DNA of 64,000 nt. It comes from an uncultured Bacteroidales bacterium (lineage in GTDB: Bacteria; Bacteroidota; Bacteroidia; Bacteroidales; Paludibacteraceae). Shown here one piece after another: positions 2,657-51,575 of the stretch. Location: assembly GCA_949282265.1 (NCBI GenBank), contig CASDOZ010000005.1:173678-237677 (forward strand), written 5' to 3'. Below the pieces are notes generated by a model. The model worked only from the letters and a program-made list of their open reading frames with translations, was not told the DNA's origin and ran no database searches. How positions within the stretch are numbered: position 1 is the first letter of the stretch; the number at the start of each line of letters is the position of its first letter. The translations under genes were made by a program, and so were the position numbers.

Positions 2657-3661
2657 ATGAAAAAGAACATATTGTCATTTGCCGCATGCGCACTGTGCTG
2701 TATATCCATGTTGCTGTGCTCATGCCACAACGAAGAAGAAACGCCGGTTTTCCAGAACAAGTGCCTGAAACGCAGTTTGGGTCCCAACGTCTGGGGAAAT
2801 GAAATCGAATTTGCCTACGCCATGGCCATCCAGCCGGCCGCCGGCAACCTGGTCAATGCCAAAGTGGAGGCCAGCATCCCCGGGGCGGAGGGCACATGGC
2901 TGGAACACCGCTCCTACTACACGAAACTGGACGGCATCGACACGGCCATCGTGGTCGGCAATCCGTCCGTAACCGACGGCCCCATCACGCAAGTAGATTA
3001 CTGTGTGGACACATGCGCCGCCACCTTGCGCTACTACTACGTCATACCCGAAGAAGCCAAGGGCAAGCAGGTTACGTTCACGTTCTCCGCGCAGGCCACC
3101 AACGGCGAAACGGTTTCCATGAGCATGGGACCCTACGACATAGCCACCATGGACATGAAGCTCGACCTGAGCCTTTCCGCAGCCAACTGCTACATTTCCA
3201 TTGAGGACATGGCCGTTTACAACGCCGCCCAGGCCGCCGAACATCCGGAAAAGATAGACCTTGTCTACCTGTACAGGAACTACAACGTGGACACCGTCGC
3301 CTTCAACCATGCGTTTGTCGCGCCCGCCGCCGATGCGCAGAAATACCTGCCCGGCGTCACGCTGCCGGCCGGCGTGAACCGCGACACGCGGATCAGGGAC
3401 GTGGGCATCAAGGATGCGCACCTGGCACGGCTACACCTGAAAAACCCGCCCGAGGCGCAACCGGCCATCTATATTGACGACATAGACCTGCGCGACATGG
3501 ACATGTCGAACATGCCGAACTGGGCGCTCGACATTGCCACCAACGACGGCATGTTCATCGAAACCCAGGATGGGAAATACAAGGCCTATATCTACGCCAA
3601 CGAGATGAAGAAAGGCAGGGCCGGAGGAACCATCAGCATGAAACGCTACACCGTATTTTAA
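2657..3661 (+). CDS. PUL-associated lipoprotein, unknown function
   Basis: Lipoprotein signal (ISMLLCSC). It starts 13 bp after the previous gene and has coding-like composition. No family was recognised. Confidence 0.65.
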   Translation: MKKNILSFAACALCCISMLLCSCHNEEETPVFQNKCLKRSLGPNVWGNEIEFAYAMAIQPAAGNLVNAKVEASIPGAEGTWLEHRSYYTKLDGIDTAIVVGNPSVTDGPITQVDYCVDTCAATLRYYYVIPEEAKGKQVTFTFSAQATNGETVSMSMGPYDIATMDMKLDLSLSAANCYISIEDMAVYNAAQAAEHPEKIDLVYLYRNYNVDTVAFNHAFVAPAADAQKYLPGVTLPAGVNRDTRIRDVGIKDAHLARLHLKNPPEAQPAIYIDDIDLRDMDMSNMPNWALDIATNDGMFIETQDGKYKAYIYANEMKKGRAGGTISMKRYTVF

Positions 3662-3758
3662 ACATACTACCTGCATGGGGACGGACTCGGGAACGGTTCC
3701 GCCCCTATTTCCTATAAACACATATTAGCAAACATAACCCTTTAAAAACTTGTCCAAC

Positions 3759-5828
3759 ATGAATCTGTCAAACATCAAAGCCACCCTTATAGCAACCCTC
3801 TTGTCCATGGCCTGCCTATCGTGCCAGCCCGGCCGGAACGGCGGCAACAGCAAACCCGAATACCTGCACGCGCCGTTCGTGCACCCGGGCATGTTCCAGA
3901 GCCAGGCCGACCTGGACACCATGCGCCAAAACGTAGCCCGCGGCACTGAACCTTGGGCAACGGCCTGCAAACAACTGATAGCCGAAACGGACACCGCCAG
4001 ACAAATAAAGGCATACACCTGCGTATCCGTCGGGGCATACAACACCAACAGCATAGGGGGAAAAGAGTTTTCCGAAGACGCCAACGCGGCATACGCAAGC
4101 GCGCTCCTGTGGTACATAACCCAAGACCCCGCCTACGCGCGGCACGCCATCAGGATACTGGACGCATGGTCGGGCAAGCTGTGGAGTCTGGACGGGAACA
4201 ACGCCAAACTCAACATCGGCCTGTTCGGCCACAAATTCCTGAACGCCGCCGAAATACTGAAACACACCGGTTCCGGCTGGACGGAACAGAGCATGCAGCA
4301 GTTCGAGCGGATGCTGCGCACCGTGTTCTACCCCACCATCAAAGACTTCTTTGTCGAAGCCAACGGCAACTGGGACGCCTCCATGATGGCCACCATGATG
4401 TGCATGGGTGTGTTCCTGGACAACCACGACATGTTCAACCGCGCCGTGGAACGCTTCTACCGCGGCGAGGGCAACGCCGGCATCACCCGCTACATCTACC
4501 CCACCGGGCAATGCCAGGAAGCCACGCGCGACTGGGGACACGTGCAGTTGGGATTAGGCGAACTGTCCAAGGCCGCGCAGGTGGCCTGGACGCAGGGGCT
4601 GGACCTGTACGCCGCCGCCGGACACCGGCTCGCACGCGGATATGAATACACGGCGCAGTTCCTCGGCGGCGAAGAGATGCCCGCATTCGGCGACATATCC
4701 TACCGCGAACGCGGCATATCCGACATCTACACCTCCATCCATAACCATTACGCCAAGGTGAAAGGCATCCGGCTCCCGCATACCGGCGCGCTGATGGCCG
4801 CACACCCGGAGGCGGCCAAACCCCTGGGCACGCTGAGCGCCACGCGCGCATACGATAACATCGCTGGAAACGAACCAATCGGAAAGAACATACTGCCGCA
4901 GGAAGACAACATCCGGCCGGAAACGACCGGTGCATCGATGGCGGGCGGCAACAGCATACCCGCCGCGGAAAAGTTGGAAGTACTGCCTGGGGAAGACATT
5001 CAGGCGGCCATAGCCAAGGCCGGAAGCCGCTGGGTCGTGCTCAAGGAAGGGCTGCACGCCATCCGGCAGCCGCTCCGCCTGGAAAGCGGCACCAAGCTGT
5101 GCGGCGAGGGACGCAAAAGCATACTGATGTTGCAGCCGGACTGCCTCGGCCCCACCATCATCAACGCCACGGCCGACATGCACGACATCGTCTTGCAGAA
5201 CTTCGTCGTGGAGGGGGCAACCACGGCGGAAACCGGCTTCGACCCGAACTACGACCGCAGCCTGCGCCTGTGCTCGCACGCCCCGTCGCGCGAGGGCATC
5301 ATCCTGCAATCGGACTCCGTCCATAAAATGCACGGCATCACCCTGCGCAACATGACTGTGCGCAACTGCACGAAAAACGGCGTATATATTGCCGGCGCAA
5401 GGAACATCACCATAGCCCAATGCGACCTCGACAACAACGGCTCCAACGTCGTGCCCGGGCCATATTTCCACCACAACATGCACCTGAGCCACGTGGCGCA
5501 AGCCGACATAACCGGCAGCAGGTTCGACTCCTCCCTGTGGGGCGACGGGCTGCGCATCACCTTCGGCTCGGATGTGCGCATTGCCGGCAACGAGATGGCG
5601 CGCAACGCCCTGTCAGGCATCTACTGCGCGGAATCCGTCCGGATAGACATGTCGGGCAACCTCATGGAAGGCAACAATGTGGCCGGCATCTGCGTGGAGC
5701 AGCTCATGGACGCCTGCACGCAGATAAGCATCAGCGGCAACCGCATCCAGTACAACGGGCAGGCCGGCATCCGTTCCGTCGGGAACAACGGCATTGAGCG
5801 TCAGGACAACCGCGAATCCGGCAACTGA
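3759..5828 (+). CDS. Lipoprotein with an alginate-lyase-like (alpha/alpha-toroid) N-terminal domain and a right-handed parallel beta-helix C-terminal domain; candidate polysaccharide lyase
   Basis: First ATG at 3759 (the ORF opens at TTG 3750). Lipobox LSMACLSC. The N-terminal half resembles the alginate_lyase/heparinase-like fold (HPGMF..ADLD, NGNWDASMM, RDWGHVQ). The C-terminal half has repeated beta-helix turns (NCTKNGVYIAGARNITIAQCDLDNNG.., IAGNEMARNALSGIYC.., SGNRIQYNGQAGI). Confidence 0.7.
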   Translation: MNLSNIKATLIATLLSMACLSCQPGRNGGNSKPEYLHAPFVHPGMFQSQADLDTMRQNVARGTEPWATACKQLIAETDTARQIKAYTCVSVGAYNTNSIGGKEFSEDANAAYASALLWYITQDPAYARHAIRILDAWSGKLWSLDGNNAKLNIGLFGHKFLNAAEILKHTGSGWTEQSMQQFERMLRTVFYPTIKDFFVEANGNWDASMMATMMCMGVFLDNHDMFNRAVERFYRGEGNAGITRYIYPTGQCQEATRDWGHVQLGLGELSKAAQVAWTQGLDLYAAAGHRLARGYEYTAQFLGGEEMPAFGDISYRERGISDIYTSIHNHYAKVKGIRLPHTGALMAAHPEAAKPLGTLSATRAYDNIAGNEPIGKNILPQEDNIRPETTGASMAGGNSIPAAEKLEVLPGEDIQAAIAKAGSRWVVLKEGLHAIRQPLRLESGTKLCGEGRKSILMLQPDCLGPTIINATADMHDIVLQNFVVEGATTAETGFDPNYDRSLRLCSHAPSREGIILQSDSVHKMHGITLRNMTVRNCTKNGVYIAGARNITIAQCDLDNNGSNVVPGPYFHHNMHLSHVAQADITGSRFDSSLWGDGLRITFGSDVRIAGNEMARNALSGIYCAESVRIDMSGNLMEGNNVAGICVEQLMDACTQISISGNRIQYNGQAGIRSVGNNGIERQDNRESGN

Positions 5829-44791: not shown

Positions 44792-46123
44792 ATGGCCCGT
44801 ACTAATTTCGGAAGCAAACTTGGCATCATTGCAGCGGCGGCCGGCTCCGCCGTAGGTTTAGGCAACATCTGGCGTTTCCCGTATGAACTCGGACAGCAGG
44901 GCGGCGGTGCATTCCTGCTGGTCTATATATTGTGTGTGTTGTTGTTGGGATTACCCATCATGCTGGCGGAACTGCTGATAGGACGCATGGGACAGCATAA
45001 CGTAACGGGTGCCTTCCGCAGCATCGGACATCCGCGCTGGCGGTTTATCGGCTATGCCGGCGTGCTGTGCTCGTTCCTGATTATGGGTTTCTATTGCGTC
45101 GTGGCCGGCTGGACCATTGAATATATCTGGCAGGCCATCACCAACCAGTTTGCCGACAAATCGACGGCCGACCTGGCGGCGGCATTCGCCGATTTCAGCA
45201 CGCGCCCCATACGCCCCATTATCTGGATGGTTTTGTTTGTGGGCATAACGTGTTATGTCGTACTCGCCGGCGTACAAAACGGCATTGAAAAAAGTGCGAA
45301 AATCCTGATGCCGGTCCTGTTCGTGCTGCTGCTCGTGCTCTGCCTGCGCTCACTGACCCTGCCCGGAGGTCTGGAAGGAGTGGCCTTCCTTTTTCAGCCC
45401 GATTTCAGCAAGATAACGCCGGAAGTGGTGTTGAGTGCCATGGGACAGGCATTTTTCTCGCTCAGCCTCGGCATGGGCTGCATGATTACCTACGGTTCCT
45501 ACATAGACAAGAAAAACAACCTGGAACACACAGCCTTGCAAGTTACCGGATTAGACACATTGGTAGCCGTTTTGGCCGCCATTGCGATTTTTCCGGCCGT
45601 GTTCGCGCTGGGCATCAATCCCGCACAAGGCCCCGAGCTGGTGTTCATCACCTTGCCGAACGTATTCGCGCACATTCCGGGAGGCTACATTTGGACCATC
45701 GCCTTTTTCGTGCTGCTGAGCATAGCCGCGCTCACCTCGACCATTTCGTTGCTGGAAGTCATCACGGCTTTTATGAACGAAGAATGGAAATTGCCGCGCC
45801 GGAAAGCGGCCATTATCGCCAGTTGCATCATTGCCGTGCTCGGCGTGCTCGCTTCGCTGTCGCTCGGCCTGCTGAAAGACTATACGATAGCAGGCATGAA
45901 CTTTTTCGACCTGCTCGACAACTTCACGGCCAAATTCCTGATGCCGATAGGCGGACTGGCCATTGCCGTTTTCTGCGGCTGGGTACTCGACAGGAAACGC
46001 ATGGAAGCGGAGCTGTCGAACGGGGGAAAACTCAAGCTAAAATACCTGAAAGCGTTTGCTTTCCTGCTGAAATACATTACGCCGCTGGCCATTCTGGCTA
46101 TCTTTATTGACCAGCTTATGTAA
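44792..46123 (+). CDS. Sodium-dependent transporter, neurotransmitter:sodium symporter (SNF) family
   Basis: GLGNIWRFPY motif, about 11-12 TM segments, 443 aa. Confidence 0.9.
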   Translation: MARTNFGSKLGIIAAAAGSAVGLGNIWRFPYELGQQGGGAFLLVYILCVLLLGLPIMLAELLIGRMGQHNVTGAFRSIGHPRWRFIGYAGVLCSFLIMGFYCVVAGWTIEYIWQAITNQFADKSTADLAAAFADFSTRPIRPIIWMVLFVGITCYVVLAGVQNGIEKSAKILMPVLFVLLLVLCLRSLTLPGGLEGVAFLFQPDFSKITPEVVLSAMGQAFFSLSLGMGCMITYGSYIDKKNNLEHTALQVTGLDTLVAVLAAIAIFPAVFALGINPAQGPELVFITLPNVFAHIPGGYIWTIAFFVLLSIAALTSTISLLEVITAFMNEEWKLPRRKAAIIASCIIAVLGVLASLSLGLLKDYTIAGMNFFDLLDNFTAKFLMPIGGLAIAVFCGWVLDRKRMEAELSNGGKLKLKYLKAFAFLLKYITPLAILAIFIDQLM

Positions 46124-46215
46124 AAAAGACGACAACGGTATTTTCCATGCGTTGGATGCCAAAGCGTATTGACAGTTTTTTCATATTTTGCATGCCTGCA
46201 ACTGGTATTTTTTGC

Positions 46216-46223
46216 TAAATTTG
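46216..46223 (+). promoter_or_regulatory. -7 box TAAATTTG, candidate promoter of the methylase-nuclease operon
   Basis: Matches TAnnTTTG. It would produce a roughly 330-nt 5' leader before the ATG at 46563. Confidence 0.35.
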
Positions 46224-46320
46224 CAGCGATAAATCATACAAAAATTTCATTTTCAAATTATAGACGACTAACAGAAAAAAGAATTTATAACGACATATTA
46301 ATTAAGCATTAGCTATTATT

Positions 46321-46517
46321 CGCATTCAAAACAAAAGCGTCGGAAACTCTTGGTTTGATATAAATCGGATAAAGCATCATTCACGGAAAGTGTCATTTCC
46401 GTTGCACAATGTAAAAGTTAATGCTCGCGCTCTGGTGCGAGTATTTTCAATTGTGCAACGGGGTTCTCCGACGCTCCTCGTGAATGCGGTGAAAAGGCTC
46501 GCACCTATTTTTATTTC
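46321..46517 (+). other. Nested-helix structured element (candidate cis-regulatory leader or ncRNA) upstream of the methyltransferase gene
   Basis: Four nested complementary pairs: CGCATTCA 46321-28 / TGAATGCG 46481-88; AGCGTCGGA 46336-44 / TCCGACGCT 46467-75; CCGTTGCACAAT 46399-410 / ATTGTGCAACGG 46450-61; CTCGC 46424-28 / GCGAG 46437-41. A competing pair GGTGCGAG 46434-41 / CTCGCACC 46498-505 is followed by TATTTTTATTT. Confidence 0.5.
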
Positions 46518-46562
46518 GATCTGTTGTGATTGATAGCACATGCACAAAAACTATCAATCATC

Positions 46563-47540
46563 ATGGCAAACGAAAACCTCCAAGCCGCCCGGAAAGCCAA
46601 AAAAGACGAGTTCTATACGCAGCTTGCCGACATTGAAAGCGAACTAAAACACTACAAAGAGCATTTCCAAGGCAAAACCGTGCTCTGCAATTGCGATGAC
46701 CCGCGTGTCAGCAATTTTTTCCACTATTTCTCCTACAACTTTGAACGTTTGGGGCTGAAAAAACTGATAACCACTTGTTACAAAAACCAAAACCGTGATC
46801 TGTTCTCGCAAAACGACAGCGAGCAGGCCATTTATCTGGAATATTATGGCGACAAGGACGGCGACCGTGTGCCCAATCCCGAAGAAATAGGCGTGAAAAG
46901 ACTGAAAGGCGACGGCGATTTCCGCAGCGCGGAATGCATAGAACTGCTCAAACAGGCCGACATTGTTGTTACCAACCCGCCGTTTTCACTATTCCGGGAA
47001 TATGTGGCGCAATTGATGGAATACAAAAAGAAGTTTCTGATTATCGGAAACGTCAATGCAATTACCTACAAAGAAACATTCAAACTCATCAAAGAAAATC
47101 AACTATGGATGGGGGCAAGCATTCACAGTGGCGACCGTGAATTTGGCATCCCTGACGATTATCCGCTTAATGCTGCCAGTTGCCGCATCGATGAAAACGG
47201 CAAGAAATATATTCGTGTTAAAGGAGTGCGATGGTTTACAAATCTGGATTACCCCGAACGCCACGAGAACCTGATCCTTTATAAAAACTACAATCCCGAT
47301 GAGTACCCGAAATACGACAACTACGATGCCATAAACGTGGACAAGACCGCCGACATTCCCATGGACTATGATGGCGCAATGGGCGTACCGATAACGTTTC
47401 TGGACAAATACAACCCGGAACAGTTTGAGATATTGGGAATAGATAGATATATAAAAGACAATCCACATTACGGTCATAGATTTAAAATCAACAATAAAGA
47501 AATTTACGCCCGCATTTTAATCCGTAAAATCAAAAAATAA
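46563..47540 (+). CDS. N6-adenine DNA methyltransferase, EcoRI-methylase-like family
   Basis: N-terminal KKDEFYT block and catalytic motif IV VVTNPPFSLF. Start at ATG 46563 (MANENLQ). AT-rich relative to flanking genes. Confidence 0.75.
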   Translation: MANENLQAARKAKKDEFYTQLADIESELKHYKEHFQGKTVLCNCDDPRVSNFFHYFSYNFERLGLKKLITTCYKNQNRDLFSQNDSEQAIYLEYYGDKDGDRVPNPEEIGVKRLKGDGDFRSAECIELLKQADIVVTNPPFSLFREYVAQLMEYKKKFLIIGNVNAITYKETFKLIKENQLWMGASIHSGDREFGIPDDYPLNAASCRIDENGKKYIRVKGVRWFTNLDYPERHENLILYKNYNPDEYPKYDNYDAINVDKTADIPMDYDGAMGVPITFLDKYNPEQFEILGIDRYIKDNPHYGHRFKINNKEIYARILIRKIKK

Positions 47541-47546
47541 ACAACC

Positions 47547-48629
47547 ATGCAAATAGAACTCAAGAAAATCACCGTTCGCGACCTGACGGCCGGTTATACG
47601 GACAATGCCGAGAACGGCGTATTCGGCTATGGCGGGAAATTGGACATCCGCCCGCCTTACCAACGTGAATTTATCTACAAGGAAAAACAGCGCAATGCTG
47701 TTATCGACACGGTCGTGCAGGACTTCCCGCTCAACGTCATGTATTGGGCAACACGTGAGGACGGCACGTTCGAGGTCATTGATGGCCAACAGCGCACCAT
47801 CAGCATTTGCCAATATGTCAATGGCGACTTTGCCTTCGACATGCGCTACTTCCACAACCTGCAAACCGATGAACAGGAACAAATTCTGGACTATGAACTG
47901 ATGGTTTACGTTTGCAGCGGTTCCGACAGCGAAAAGCTGCAATGGTTCAGAACCATCAACATTGCCGGGGAAAAACTTACCGAACAAGAATTGCGCAACG
48001 CCGTATATTCCGGCCCGTGGGTGAGCGATGCCAAACGCTATTTCAGCAAGAACGGTTGCGCGGCATACGGCATGGCAAGCAAATACATGAGCGGTTCCCC
48101 TATCCGCCAAGACTATCTGGAAACGGCCATCGACTGGCTCTCTGGCGGAAACATAGAAGTGTATATGGCCAACCACCAACACGATGCAAACGCCAATGAA
48201 CTATGGCTTTATTTTACATCTGTCATTAATTGGGTGAAAATACTTTTTCCAAAATACCGGCGCGAGATGCAGAGCGTCCAATGGGGATTCCTATACAACA
48301 AACTAAAATCCAAGCCATTTGATGCCAATTCTTTGGAACAGCAGGTAGCCAAACTAATGAGTGACGACGATGTAACAAAAAAATCAGGCATCTACGAATA
48401 TGTACTCACCGGCAACGAACGCGCCTTGAACATCCGCGCTTTTACGGACAACATGAAACGCGAAGCCTATGAACGGCAACAAGGAAAATGCCCGTTGTGC
48501 AACGGGCATTTTGAGCTTTCAGCCATGGAGGCCGACCACATAACGCCTTGGCATGCCGGCGGCAAAACCATAGCCGGGAACTGCCAAATGCTCTGCCGCG
48601 ACTGCAACCGCCGGAAATCGGGAAAATAA
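47547..48629 (+). CDS. DUF262 (ParB/GmrSD-N-like) domain fused to a C-terminal HNH nuclease
   Basis: DUF262 signatures RPPYQREFIY and VIDGQQRT. The C-terminal HNH reads CPLCNGHF...ADHITPWHAGG...NCQMLCRDCNRRKSGK. It starts 6 nt after the methylase stop. Confidence 0.75.
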   Translation: MQIELKKITVRDLTAGYTDNAENGVFGYGGKLDIRPPYQREFIYKEKQRNAVIDTVVQDFPLNVMYWATREDGTFEVIDGQQRTISICQYVNGDFAFDMRYFHNLQTDEQEQILDYELMVYVCSGSDSEKLQWFRTINIAGEKLTEQELRNAVYSGPWVSDAKRYFSKNGCAAYGMASKYMSGSPIRQDYLETAIDWLSGGNIEVYMANHQHDANANELWLYFTSVINWVKILFPKYRREMQSVQWGFLYNKLKSKPFDANSLEQQVAKLMSDDDVTKKSGIYEYVLTGNERALNIRAFTDNMKREAYERQQGKCPLCNGHFELSAMEADHITPWHAGGKTIAGNCQMLCRDCNRRKSGK

Positions 48630-50772: not shown

Positions 50773-51127
50773 GTACTTTTTACAATTCAGGCGCAAAAAT
50801 AATCATTTTTTTCCGAGCACGAAGCATTCCGATGTCCCTTTGTGATAATTCCGCCCGGCAATGCCGCCACGCCGCCACGGCAAAGCAGACAAAACGGGCG
50901 AGAAGCCACTCAAGGCCAGATGGCTCATGGGCACGCGGAAAGAAAGCGGCAGTAAATAAAGCAGCAAGAACCGGAAGCCCAGAACCAGAACAAAGGCACA
51001 GCGACCTAAGGCAGGAAATCCATAAGGGAAAGTCCAGACCGAAAAACCAAATAACGGAGAACATGGTTTATTTTGAACCTTTCAGACATTATATTTATTC
51101 ATAGCTTATTTGGATATACACAATTGT

Positions 51128-51379
51128 TATTTATCCATAAACAATATGATATTGCACATACGCAAGTAGTATTTATCTATAAACAATATCATATTGCGTG
51201 TACGCAAGTAGTATTTATCTATAAACAATATCCTATTGCGTGTACGCAAGTAGTATTTATCCGAAAACAATGTCCTATTGCGTGCACGCAAGCAGTATTT
51301 ATCTATAAACAATGTCATATTGTGCTTGCGCAAGCAGCATTTATCTGCAAACAATGTCCTATTGTGTCTGCGCAAGTAT
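51128..51379. repeat. Tandem array of six exact 42-bp-period units (plus degenerate flanking copies), each with two palindromes
   Basis: Units at 51128, 51170, 51212, 51254, 51296 and 51338. Consensus TATTTATCTATAAACAATRTCMTATTGCGTGYACGCAAGYAG. It contains TTTAT-CT-ATAAA and TTGCG-N4-CGCAA (the unit at 51254 carries the perfect 14-nt palindrome TTGCGTGCACGCAA). Degenerate echoes occur at about 51086-51127 and 51380-51440. Confidence 0.9.
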
Positions 51380-51575
51380 ATTTTATAGAAAAACAAAGCC
51401 AACTTATGCTTATATGCTTATAGTATATGCATAAACAATTTACTTTTTACATAATCCGGATATAATTTATTGTTTGCAGCTTAAATCATGCGTATATAAA
51501 ATTAAAATTCATATATTTGCAGGGAAAACATTATATGCCAAACAGGATTTGCCCATCCTTAACAACCAAACAGCC

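Follow-up and report, generated by a model that had tools for sequence, protein, structure and literature searches.

A stretch of 64,000 nt from an uncultured Bacteroidales bacterium of the Paludibacteraceae (contig CASDOZ010000005.1; the whole stretch is referred to below as the window) carries, at positions 46304–46565 of its plus strand, one member of a family of structured, probably cis-acting leader RNAs of Bacteroidales that had not been catalogued before. The RNA is about 260 nt in length and stands directly before a methylase–nuclease gene pair. A covariance model of the family (R1) matched the window over model positions 1–261 with 221.8 bits (E = 5.9e-54), and by covariance model and repeat search alike the leader is present as a single copy within the 64 kb. 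Its RNA structure is under strong selection, on the sense strand. We place the leader with a known kind of element, the structured cis-regulatory leaders and attenuators; what sets it apart is its link to mobile restriction–modification and envelope-modification cassettes, the number of its conserved competing helices and its modular exchange. We consider it likely that the element is a cis-regulatory conformational leader RNA working by choice among alternative folds, and hold the specific wiring set out below with much lower confidence.

A first-pass annotation of positions 46321–46517, made from the letters alone, had described four nested helices. By direct reading of the sequence between 45900 and 46900, all four were exact Watson–Crick complements: 46321–28/46481–88 (8 bp), 46336–44/46467–75 (9 bp), 46399–410/46450–61 (12 bp) and 46424–28/46437–41 (5 bp), the innermost of which grows to 11 bp as 46420–30/46435–45. 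The two competing pairings proposed alongside them were present as well, with CATTCACG (46378–85) complementary to CGTGAATG (46479–86) and GGTGCGAG (46434–41) complementary to CTCGCACC (46498–505). Folding of 46310–46530 with RNAfold gave −73.9 kcal/mol against −51.8 ± 4.4 kcal/mol in 200 dinucleotide-preserving shuffles (z = −5.06), none of which matched the native fold energy. The minus strand of the same segment folds well too (z = −4.7) because the element is an imperfect palindrome, and other evidence was therefore needed for the strand. The element is also larger than first described, running from 46304 to the methylase AUG at 46563–65, which adds a 5′ tail and an 11-bp hairpin (46526–36/46551–61).

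From 5′ to 3′, the order of parts is a −7 promoter box, an A-rich spacer, the tail, helices P1 and P2, a small hairpin P2a, an internal decoy strand, helices P3 and P4, hairpin T, hairpin H and the AUG. All of these lie on the plus strand. Most near-invariant columns of alignment A1 fall in the conserved tail (AAGCAUUAGCUAUUAU, 46304–46319), for which there are two alternative partners. P1 (arms 46320–28 and 46481–89) closes the rod formed by P1–P4; 95% of its cells are paired across the family, and 8 of its 9 pairs have changed on both sides. The corresponding values for P2 (arms 46336–44 and 46467–75; possible extension 46345–50/46460–65) are 97% and 8 of 8. Within what had been described as a 54-nt bulge lies P2a (46353–46370), found in the minimum-energy fold, paired in 73% of cells family-wide and covarying. 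It is followed by the decoy strand UCAUUCACGGAAAGUGUCA (46377–46395), which can pair with 46469–87 and displace the distal 5′ strands of P1 and P2. P3 (arms 46399–410 and 46450–61) is hypervariable in sequence with its pairing kept, all 12 pairs having changed on both sides. The apical hairpin P4 (arms 46420–30 and 46435–45; 98% of cells paired, with many G–U pairs on this strand) contains region 1 (46422–30) in its 5′ arm and region 2 (46434–42) in its 3′ arm. Hairpin T (GAAAAGG ... CCUAUUUUU) and its U-rich tail occupy 46491–46517, with region 3 (46497–46505) in the loop and 3′ arm. Hairpin H (arms 46526–36 and 46551–61) covers the bases directly 5′ of the AUG; 93% of its cells are paired, 10 of its 11 pairs have changed on both sides, and its folding energy is −11.1 kcal/mol in the window, with a family mean of −11.8 kcal/mol.

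For collection of the family, the first pattern search was made with the 12-bp helix of the window. It returned a second locus of the same species (L002), with a leader 100% identical, and a homologue (L001) that shows compensatory changes relative to the window. Locus L003 was rejected as a family member; it matched the hypervariable P3 12-mer by coincidence and is an unrelated repeat in a Chloroflexi bin. In that locus ('Leptolinea'), positions 740–815 hold the 12-mer CCGTTGCACAAT twice in direct and twice in inverted orientation, nested, after an apparent integrase 3′ end, and may be a recombinase binding site. A further 80 loci were collected through the methylase protein. In about 30 of these the element was recognizable by blastn or nhmmer, always directly before the methylase AUG and essentially always in Bacteroidales or Bacteroidota bins, with one case in a 'Flexilinea' bin. 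The conserved 5′ tail pattern gave at least 119 further stretches, nearly all from Bacteroidales genomes or bins (Bacteroidaceae, Prevotella/Segatella, Paludibacteraceae, Muribaculaceae, Barnesiella and Ca. Enterocola), with a few in bins labelled otherwise.

The covariance model R1 was built from 23 sequences with a hand-set structure of 261 positions and 61 pairs. It matched 100 full-length copies in a first batch (76–250 bits) and 26 more in a second, a few of these 26 being cut by contig ends or runs of N and scoring lower. The family so far comprises about 125 copies among the collected loci, in more than 100 gut or rumen Bacteroidales species-level genomes. All of these copies are in sense orientation to the downstream gene, and in 99 of the 118 copies with enough downstream sequence the model's final three positions coincide with the AUG that opens an open reading frame (ORF) of at least 60 amino acids. 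Copies are 65–80% identical, with compensatory changes, and among the matches listed at least seven genomes hold two copies before different genes.

Base pairing was then scored over the model-based alignment A2. Standard pairs were found in 91.1% of cells, compared with 37–45% when the 3′ partners were slid by one to three columns. The annotation had proposed a search for covariation in homologous upstream regions, and this bore out a conserved structured RNA: 58 of the 61 pairs have changed on both sides, in 1031 cells, and none of 500 shuffles reached any of the measures. Most P3 positions show several pair types, up to all four Watson–Crick types, and P2 pairs switch among C–G, G–C, A–U and U–A across the family. 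The two strands are not equivalent in this respect: G–U and U–G together number 559 in A2, against 148 for A–C and C–A (about 3.8 to 1), an asymmetry to be expected only of a folded sense strand. Because A2 was fitted to the model, its paired fraction is somewhat inflated; neither the asymmetry nor the double changes can be produced by fitting.

No member of Rfam 15, including Bacteroidales-1, Bacteroides-1, Bacteroid-trp, JUMPstart, the SAM/SAH riboswitches and HEARO, matched in a permissive scan of 45500–47500, where the best score was that of Leu_leader at chance level (17.5 bits against a cut-off of 50). The same collection returned only tRNAs from seven other leader-bearing loci, and nothing tRNA-like or tmRNA-like was detected. 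A published description was found neither by topic nor with a conserved 13-mer; subscription papers lay partly outside this search, and an earlier description is possible. Outside Bacteroidales, R1 gave no match in the methylase–nuclease loci of Spirochaetota, Proteobacteria, Ignavibacteria, Actinomycetota, archaea and others, where the methylase is about 64–80% and the nuclease mostly 51–73% identical. Since the pair stands there without the leader, the leader is an addition made in Bacteroidales to a pair of genes that is widely transferred. As for a phage origin, a single pattern match among 2.9 million IMG/VR viral contigs was not confirmed by R1, and a distant blastn search of the plasmids in PLSDB yielded no match.

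Competing pairings were sought by a scan that took every pair of columns in A2 and looked for antiparallel runs that are conserved; it recovered the modelled helices. The mutually exclusive pairings of the annotation are conserved. Region 2 (46434–42) with region 3 (46497–505), the pairing of GGTGCGAG with CTCGCACC, is formed in 91% of cells and double-sided in all nine pairs, and regions 1, 2 and 3 therefore covary three ways. The helix takes up three bases of the T stem, the final one of the 5′ arm and the first two of the 3′ arm, so that the two structures are mutually exclusive, and it abolishes the sole G–C pairs of T. The decoy strand around CATTCACG covaries in more than half of the family: the duplex computed with RNAduplex has −20.6 kcal/mol in the window (z = −3.7) and a family mean of −17.6 kcal/mol against −11.1 kcal/mol in shuffled bulges, 58% of members have z below −2, and L035, L108 and L181 covary clearly. 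The scan also gave two partners for the tail. Its GCUAUUA (46312–18) can pair with the 5′ arm of H at 46531–37 (98% paired, one covarying pair), and its segment AGCAUUAGCU (46305–14) can form an early, metastable 10-bp helix with 46416–25, before and inside the 5′ arm of P4 (AAUGCU; 94% paired, both sides conserved).

Folding of a growing chain predicted an order in which the tail first pairs with the sequence before P4, P4 replaces this helix after synthesis of region 2, the rod is closed, the tail moves to the H arm, and H finally closes when its 3′ arm is complete. The minimum-energy fold at full length has the rod and a closed H (−90.5 kcal/mol, against −86.0 kcal/mol with the tail forced onto the H arm), and the default output is therefore predicted to be, probably, low expression. 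A static 5′ module that stabilizes or insulates the messenger against RNases or Rho, giving a fixed low expression of foreign genes, would share this default fold with its closed H and stable rod and would suit a part that is portable before unrelated, horizontally acquired genes. It does not explain three sets of conserved or covarying mutually exclusive pairings, and we regard it as unlikely.

The P4 5′ arm contains an AUG (46421–23), and a ribosome-dependent attenuation could be imagined in which translation of an upstream ORF from this codon frees region 2 for region 3. An AUG, GUG or UUG stands at this position of P4 in 87% of copies, and a ribosome there would cover region 1 and not region 2. 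The codon is nevertheless base-paired in every predicted state, either in P4 or in the early tail helix; the ORFs range from 4 to 38 codons with no conserved frame, stop position or peptide; and the conserved tail pairing already accounts for the P4 AUG. Of all the explanations weighed here, this one appears to us the least probable.

The annotation had called the 3′ part a terminator-like configuration. T is a conserved U-tailed hairpin, the following 12 nt containing 6–9 U, and it has a conserved competitor; it is weak, with about −3 kcal/mol (−3.1) in the window and a family mean of −4.8 kcal/mol, and a simple consensus terminator scan did not report the T of the window. In the family consensus its arms read AGAAAGG/CCUUUCU (window 46491–46512, model positions 194–211), of which CCUUUCU may resemble the extreme 3′ end of Bacteroidetes 16S rRNA, a likeness that could be chance. 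If it held, the 5′ arm of T would be an anti-16S-tail sequence masked by a mimic.

For the transcript, a Bacteroidetes-type −7 promoter box (TAnnTTTG; TAAATTTG, plus strand) was read at 46216–46223, with a predicted start near 46230. The box lies 88 nt before the conserved leader and the predicted start about 75 nt upstream of it. The annotation had noted this box and placed the element in the 5′ untranslated region (UTR), and the family agrees with it: TAnnTTTG occurs within 160 nt upstream of 94 of 124 copies, mostly 60–100 nt before the leader. No convincing TAnnTTTG was seen on the minus strand inside the leader. Searches for RNA runs holding the organism of the window found none. In a Segatella copri homologue (L149), contigs from three pure-culture RNA-seq runs cover the leader together with a type III-like mod gene, both lying on one contig in two of these runs, and the depth is flat. 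These contigs end at 3684, 3719 and 3733, with a −7 box (TATCTTTG) at about 3690–97, and one end lies 6 nt past the box. From the S. copri contigs and the promoter position in the family, the leader is therefore a long 5′ UTR, and that of the window is, on this promoter reading, the 5′ UTR of the methylase–nuclease operon, with a predicted TAnnTTTG promoter about 90 nt upstream.

A separate small RNA, ended at T and acting in trans with read-through into the gene incidental, would place some of these observations differently. T and its U-rich tract lie 45–50 nt before the AUG, and the several copies in one genome share a near-identical tail and H that could serve as common seed regions. The conserved module continues past T to the start codon, however, and the tail pairs with the H arm beyond T; T is weak, and the S. 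copri contigs are continuous from the leader into the gene. A trans-acting small RNA is in our view highly unlikely.

From the observed structure and strand, alternative pairings, family, gene associations, co-transcription in the homologue and modular exchange, we infer a regulatory outcome, a direction of switching and a trigger in the following terms. The rod P1–P4 can be closed by either the distal 5′ strand or the internal decoy strand. Region 2 can pair with region 1 or region 3, in a layout of anti-antiterminator, antiterminator and terminator or pause hairpin. The tail can take the sequence just before P4 as its early partner and the 5′ arm of H as its later one; when H is left to close, it buries the translation start region. 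Which pairings win would set both the number of transcripts passing T and the openness of the AUG region, and the selector may be the folding order during transcription or an outside factor, which could for instance be a protein or small RNA or else a processing event. Travelling with small mobile cassettes, or being swapped in before them, the leader would act as a host-adapted module for controlled expression.

Several observations weigh against this cis-regulatory reading. About 40% of members, a divergent subgroup, have no significant decoy pairing, and T makes a poor intrinsic terminator. The simplest two-state view is awkward, as the state with T open appears to tie up the tail that opens H, and sequential refolding or an outside factor must therefore be assumed. 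The RNA evidence consists of assembled contigs of one homologue, from which 3′ ends and attenuation cannot be read. The alternative pairings, and not an obvious binding pocket, account for nearly all conserved bases, and no metabolite is common to the downstream genes.

The last two points bear also on a strict riboswitch, a reading in which a small molecule or second messenger would bind the rod as its aptamer and T and H would serve as the expression platforms. The general layout would suit it, as a domain of several helices, its junction bases (GAAAC and GGGGUUC) conserved, is followed by a terminator-like and a start-masking hairpin, and the element precedes many unrelated genes, as second-messenger riboswitches do. 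Set against this, the downstream genes (methylases, acyltransferases, glycosyltransferases and helix–turn–helix (HTH) proteins) are without a metabolic theme, the conserved bases fit competing helices better than a pocket, and no known riboswitch class matches. We think a strict riboswitch improbable.

Attenuators and riboswitch expression platforms are among the known systems closest to the leader as read here. As in these, three segments covary, the middle one can pair with either neighbour, one of the two pairings takes away the G–C pairs of a U-tailed hairpin, and a second hairpin masks the translation start. The leader differs in its weak terminator, in that the 3′ strands of three other helices lie between regions 2 and 3, and in lacking a common metabolite and an Rfam match. 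The hok-family toxin mRNAs of type I toxin–antitoxin systems reportedly follow a programmed folding pathway with coupled covariations, as worked out by Gerdes, Franch and Gultyaev. As in the leader, their 5′ end makes successive long-range pairings, an early one being metastable, and access to the start depends on the partner chosen. The likeness is in kind only, the leader having no toxin, antisense RNA gene or 3′ fold-back and standing as a 5′ leader before unrelated genes. The erm and cat leaders also hide the start region of a modification-enzyme gene, which an alternative upstream pairing opens; they use a leader peptide and a stalled ribosome, whereas the present leader has no conserved peptide.

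JUMPstart/ops leaders are served by RfaH-type NusG paralogues, and Bacteroides capsule loci have UpxY leaders. Like the present family, these leaders are shared by horizontally acquired surface operons; the conserved tail could be a recruitment site, with a possible link to read-through. Unlike JUMPstart, the leader lacks the ops motif GGCGGTAG and an adjacent NusG paralogue, gives no match to the Rfam JUMPstart model, and is structured and 5–6 times longer. The known controls of restriction–modification (C-protein operators, antisense RNAs and methylation-sensitive promoters) also sit upstream of the methylase gene. In contrast to them, the window has no C gene and the element is not specific to restriction–modification. 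An ORF for a C-protein controller was not found within 46124–48629, and the palindrome of H covaries as an RNA helix and also precedes non-restriction genes.

In the window, the leader lies between a sodium symporter gene (44792–46123) and an EcoRI-family N6-adenine DNA methyltransferase gene on the plus strand (46563–47540; Pfam PF13651, E = 1.5e-145; PADLOC MTase_II). After a gap of 6 nt, this is followed on the same strand by a gene for a DUF262 (GmrSD_N) and HNH nuclease (47547–48629; Pfam PF03235 and PF01844; full-length match to PADLOC REase_II PDLC03418), and then by sufD and sufC in convergent orientation. PADLOC thus reports an ordinary pair of type II methylase and restriction enzyme. 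The nuclease scores 23 bits against an IscB cut-off of 175 and is not IscB-like beyond its HNH domain. Two functions suggested earlier fail on these arrangements. A timing of the nuclease relative to the methylase does not fit a leader that is upstream of both genes and is also found before single unrelated genes. A scaffold or partner RNA of the DUF262–HNH protein does not fit either, as the gene pair occurs in other phyla without the RNA and the leader occurs without the nuclease.

The downstream classes were assigned by clustering of the first ORFs and Pfam scans. The EcoRI-family methylase with the DUF262–HNH nuclease follows 82 copies, a count to be read in light of the many loci that were collected via this very protein. 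N6_N4 methylases of type III-like systems follow seven copies and proteins of about 810 amino acids with an NPPY motif three; a Dam-like D12 methylase with a partner gene was also found downstream, as was a pair whose first gene has no Pfam match and whose second is methylase-like. DNA methylases, which fall into four families, thus follow about two thirds of copies. The others precede Acyl_transf_3 proteins (at least six copies), membrane proteins with a sulfatase-family domain (four), small Cro/C1-type HTH proteins (four or five), DUF2334/polysaccharide-deacetylase-like proteins (two) and, in single cases, a GT2 glycosyltransferase, a GNAT acetyltransferase, a trypsin-like lipoprotein and proteins without assignment. 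The shared theme is that of accessory DNA- or surface-modifying genes, not of a metabolic pathway. It is possible, though doubtful, that they form a single RNA-based regulon of contingency genes in gut and rumen Bacteroidales. In it, one portable switch RNA specific to the lineage would be attached to horizontally acquired defence genes (the four methylase families and their nucleases) and envelope-remodelling genes (O-acyltransferases, glycosyltransferases and sulfatase-family membrane enzymes); these would share a signal or factor, such as phage attack or envelope stress, and the rod would be an exchangeable specificity module. If so, a bacterial lineage would here have a novel means of domesticating incoming genes and of regulating them jointly.

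Exchange of parts was observed both within the species of the window and between loci. In four metagenome assemblies of this species, the flanks are about 98–99% identical to the window and exactly 46321–46491 is replaced by 169 other letters. The variant rod, known from 30 nt at each end, has a new P1 of 9 bp (TCGCGTCAA/TTGACGCGA) and a new P2 of 10 bp (AGGTCCGCTA/TAGCGGACCT), both perfectly complementary. An assignment of the variant to the L001 type was rejected, and so was an inversion, the sequence being a different one and not the reverse complement. A search by flank pattern in JGI metagenomes did not find the variant rod, and reads on the flanks alone gave no loose ends. Between loci, L094 and L158 have both chromosomal site and leader in common and differ in the gene from the AUG onward (DUF2334 and GT2, respectively). 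L094 and L134 share only leader and gene, at 97%, in a block running from 37 nt before the leader to about 230 nt past the gene, while L144/L148 and L102/L148 share the leader only, at 89–95%. Together with the rod swap between strains, these comparisons indicate that leader, rod and gene are each exchanged. Recombination is the likely route, by way of the conserved tail and the sequences of T and H. At the 3′ end of the cassette shared by L094 (2985–3065) and L134 stand two GTTGCAC/GTGCAAC palindromes (AAAGTTGCAC...GTGCAACTTT; GCACTTTGCAAAGTGC), which could be a terminator or a cassette boundary.

Such mobility raises the possibility that the element functions as DNA. It might then be a site of recombination or the border of a cassette, an invertible promoter segment, an attC-like site or a miniature inverted-repeat transposable element (MITE). 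Its position at the 5′ edge of mobile cassettes, the sharp boundaries of the exchanged modules and the resemblance of P1 and P2 to inverted repeats around about 125 bp would all be expected of a DNA element. The G–U excess over A–C on the sense strand (about 3.8 to 1) would not, and DNA would have no use for the nested inner helices P3 and P4 or for regions 1, 2 and 3 covarying three ways. Copies end at the AUG and are never reverse-oriented to the gene, there are no arrays, no recombinase adjoins the window copy, and no inverted form was present in eight metagenome assemblies. For an invertible promoter in particular, no strand-changing joint was found in the contigs of the eight metagenome runs (assemblies can miss rare forms), and the rod holds no TAnnTTTG. 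An integron attC site is at odds with a single copy per 8-kb locus, bar a partial extra one in L164, and with primary sequence conserved at length. A function at the level of DNA is therefore, in our estimation, very unlikely. The annotation had itself named a MITE-like repeat at many unrelated sites as a possible explanation of the helices; the copies, though numerous, are all sense, mostly abut a start codon and have diverged with compensatory changes. Its suggestion of a relic end of an inserted element stands as far as position is concerned, in that the leader marks the 5′ edge of a mobile cassette, yet with its strong selection on RNA structure the leader is not a relic. In L164, the partial leader (first 44 positions, 3381–3423) lies 1.1 kb upstream of the complete copy (4525–4768) and may be a recombination scar.

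Highly similar upstream regions before non-homologous genes, shared across species, have been described as reused or 'putative mobile' promoters (PMC3575422). Here the reused part differs in being mainly a structured RNA of 260 nt, with its 3′ end at the start codon, and its compensatory divergence shows selection on RNA folding and not recent copying.

With covariation this extensive, the leader offers a ready handle for experiments; as a cis-regulatory RNA, it could reveal how its hosts control defence and surface variation and plug acquired genes into host regulation. Bacteroidales dominate the human gut and the rumen. To our knowledge, they lack Hfq and CsrA and mostly do without Shine–Dalgarno-based initiation, and their post-transcriptional control is poorly mapped. 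The leader is also a possible compact, portable regulatory part for engineering of Bacteroides and Segatella, and it explains the long 'empty' intergenic regions that annotation leaves before many methylase genes.

Several minor observations were made on the genes around the leader. Over 8 kb, identity between the window and L002 is 96.6%, reaching 100% in the leader and 99.4% in the nuclease. Within the methylase gene, about 300 nt (47050–47340) differ at 48–55 per 100 and about 47500–47540 at 40 per 100, and the two methylase proteins are 79% identical; this looks like a swapped target-recognition segment beside an unchanged nuclease. A tandem array with a 42-nt period and at least 6–8 units at 51068–51403 is another of the few strong differences between the two loci. 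Some methylase–nuclease loci hold 1–2.5 kb of extra DNA between the genes. The pair itself occurs across many phyla (L006, L010, L011, L033, L078 and others), including Nitrosopumilus and Micrarchaeota bins, and this spread points to very wide horizontal transfer of the two-gene module.

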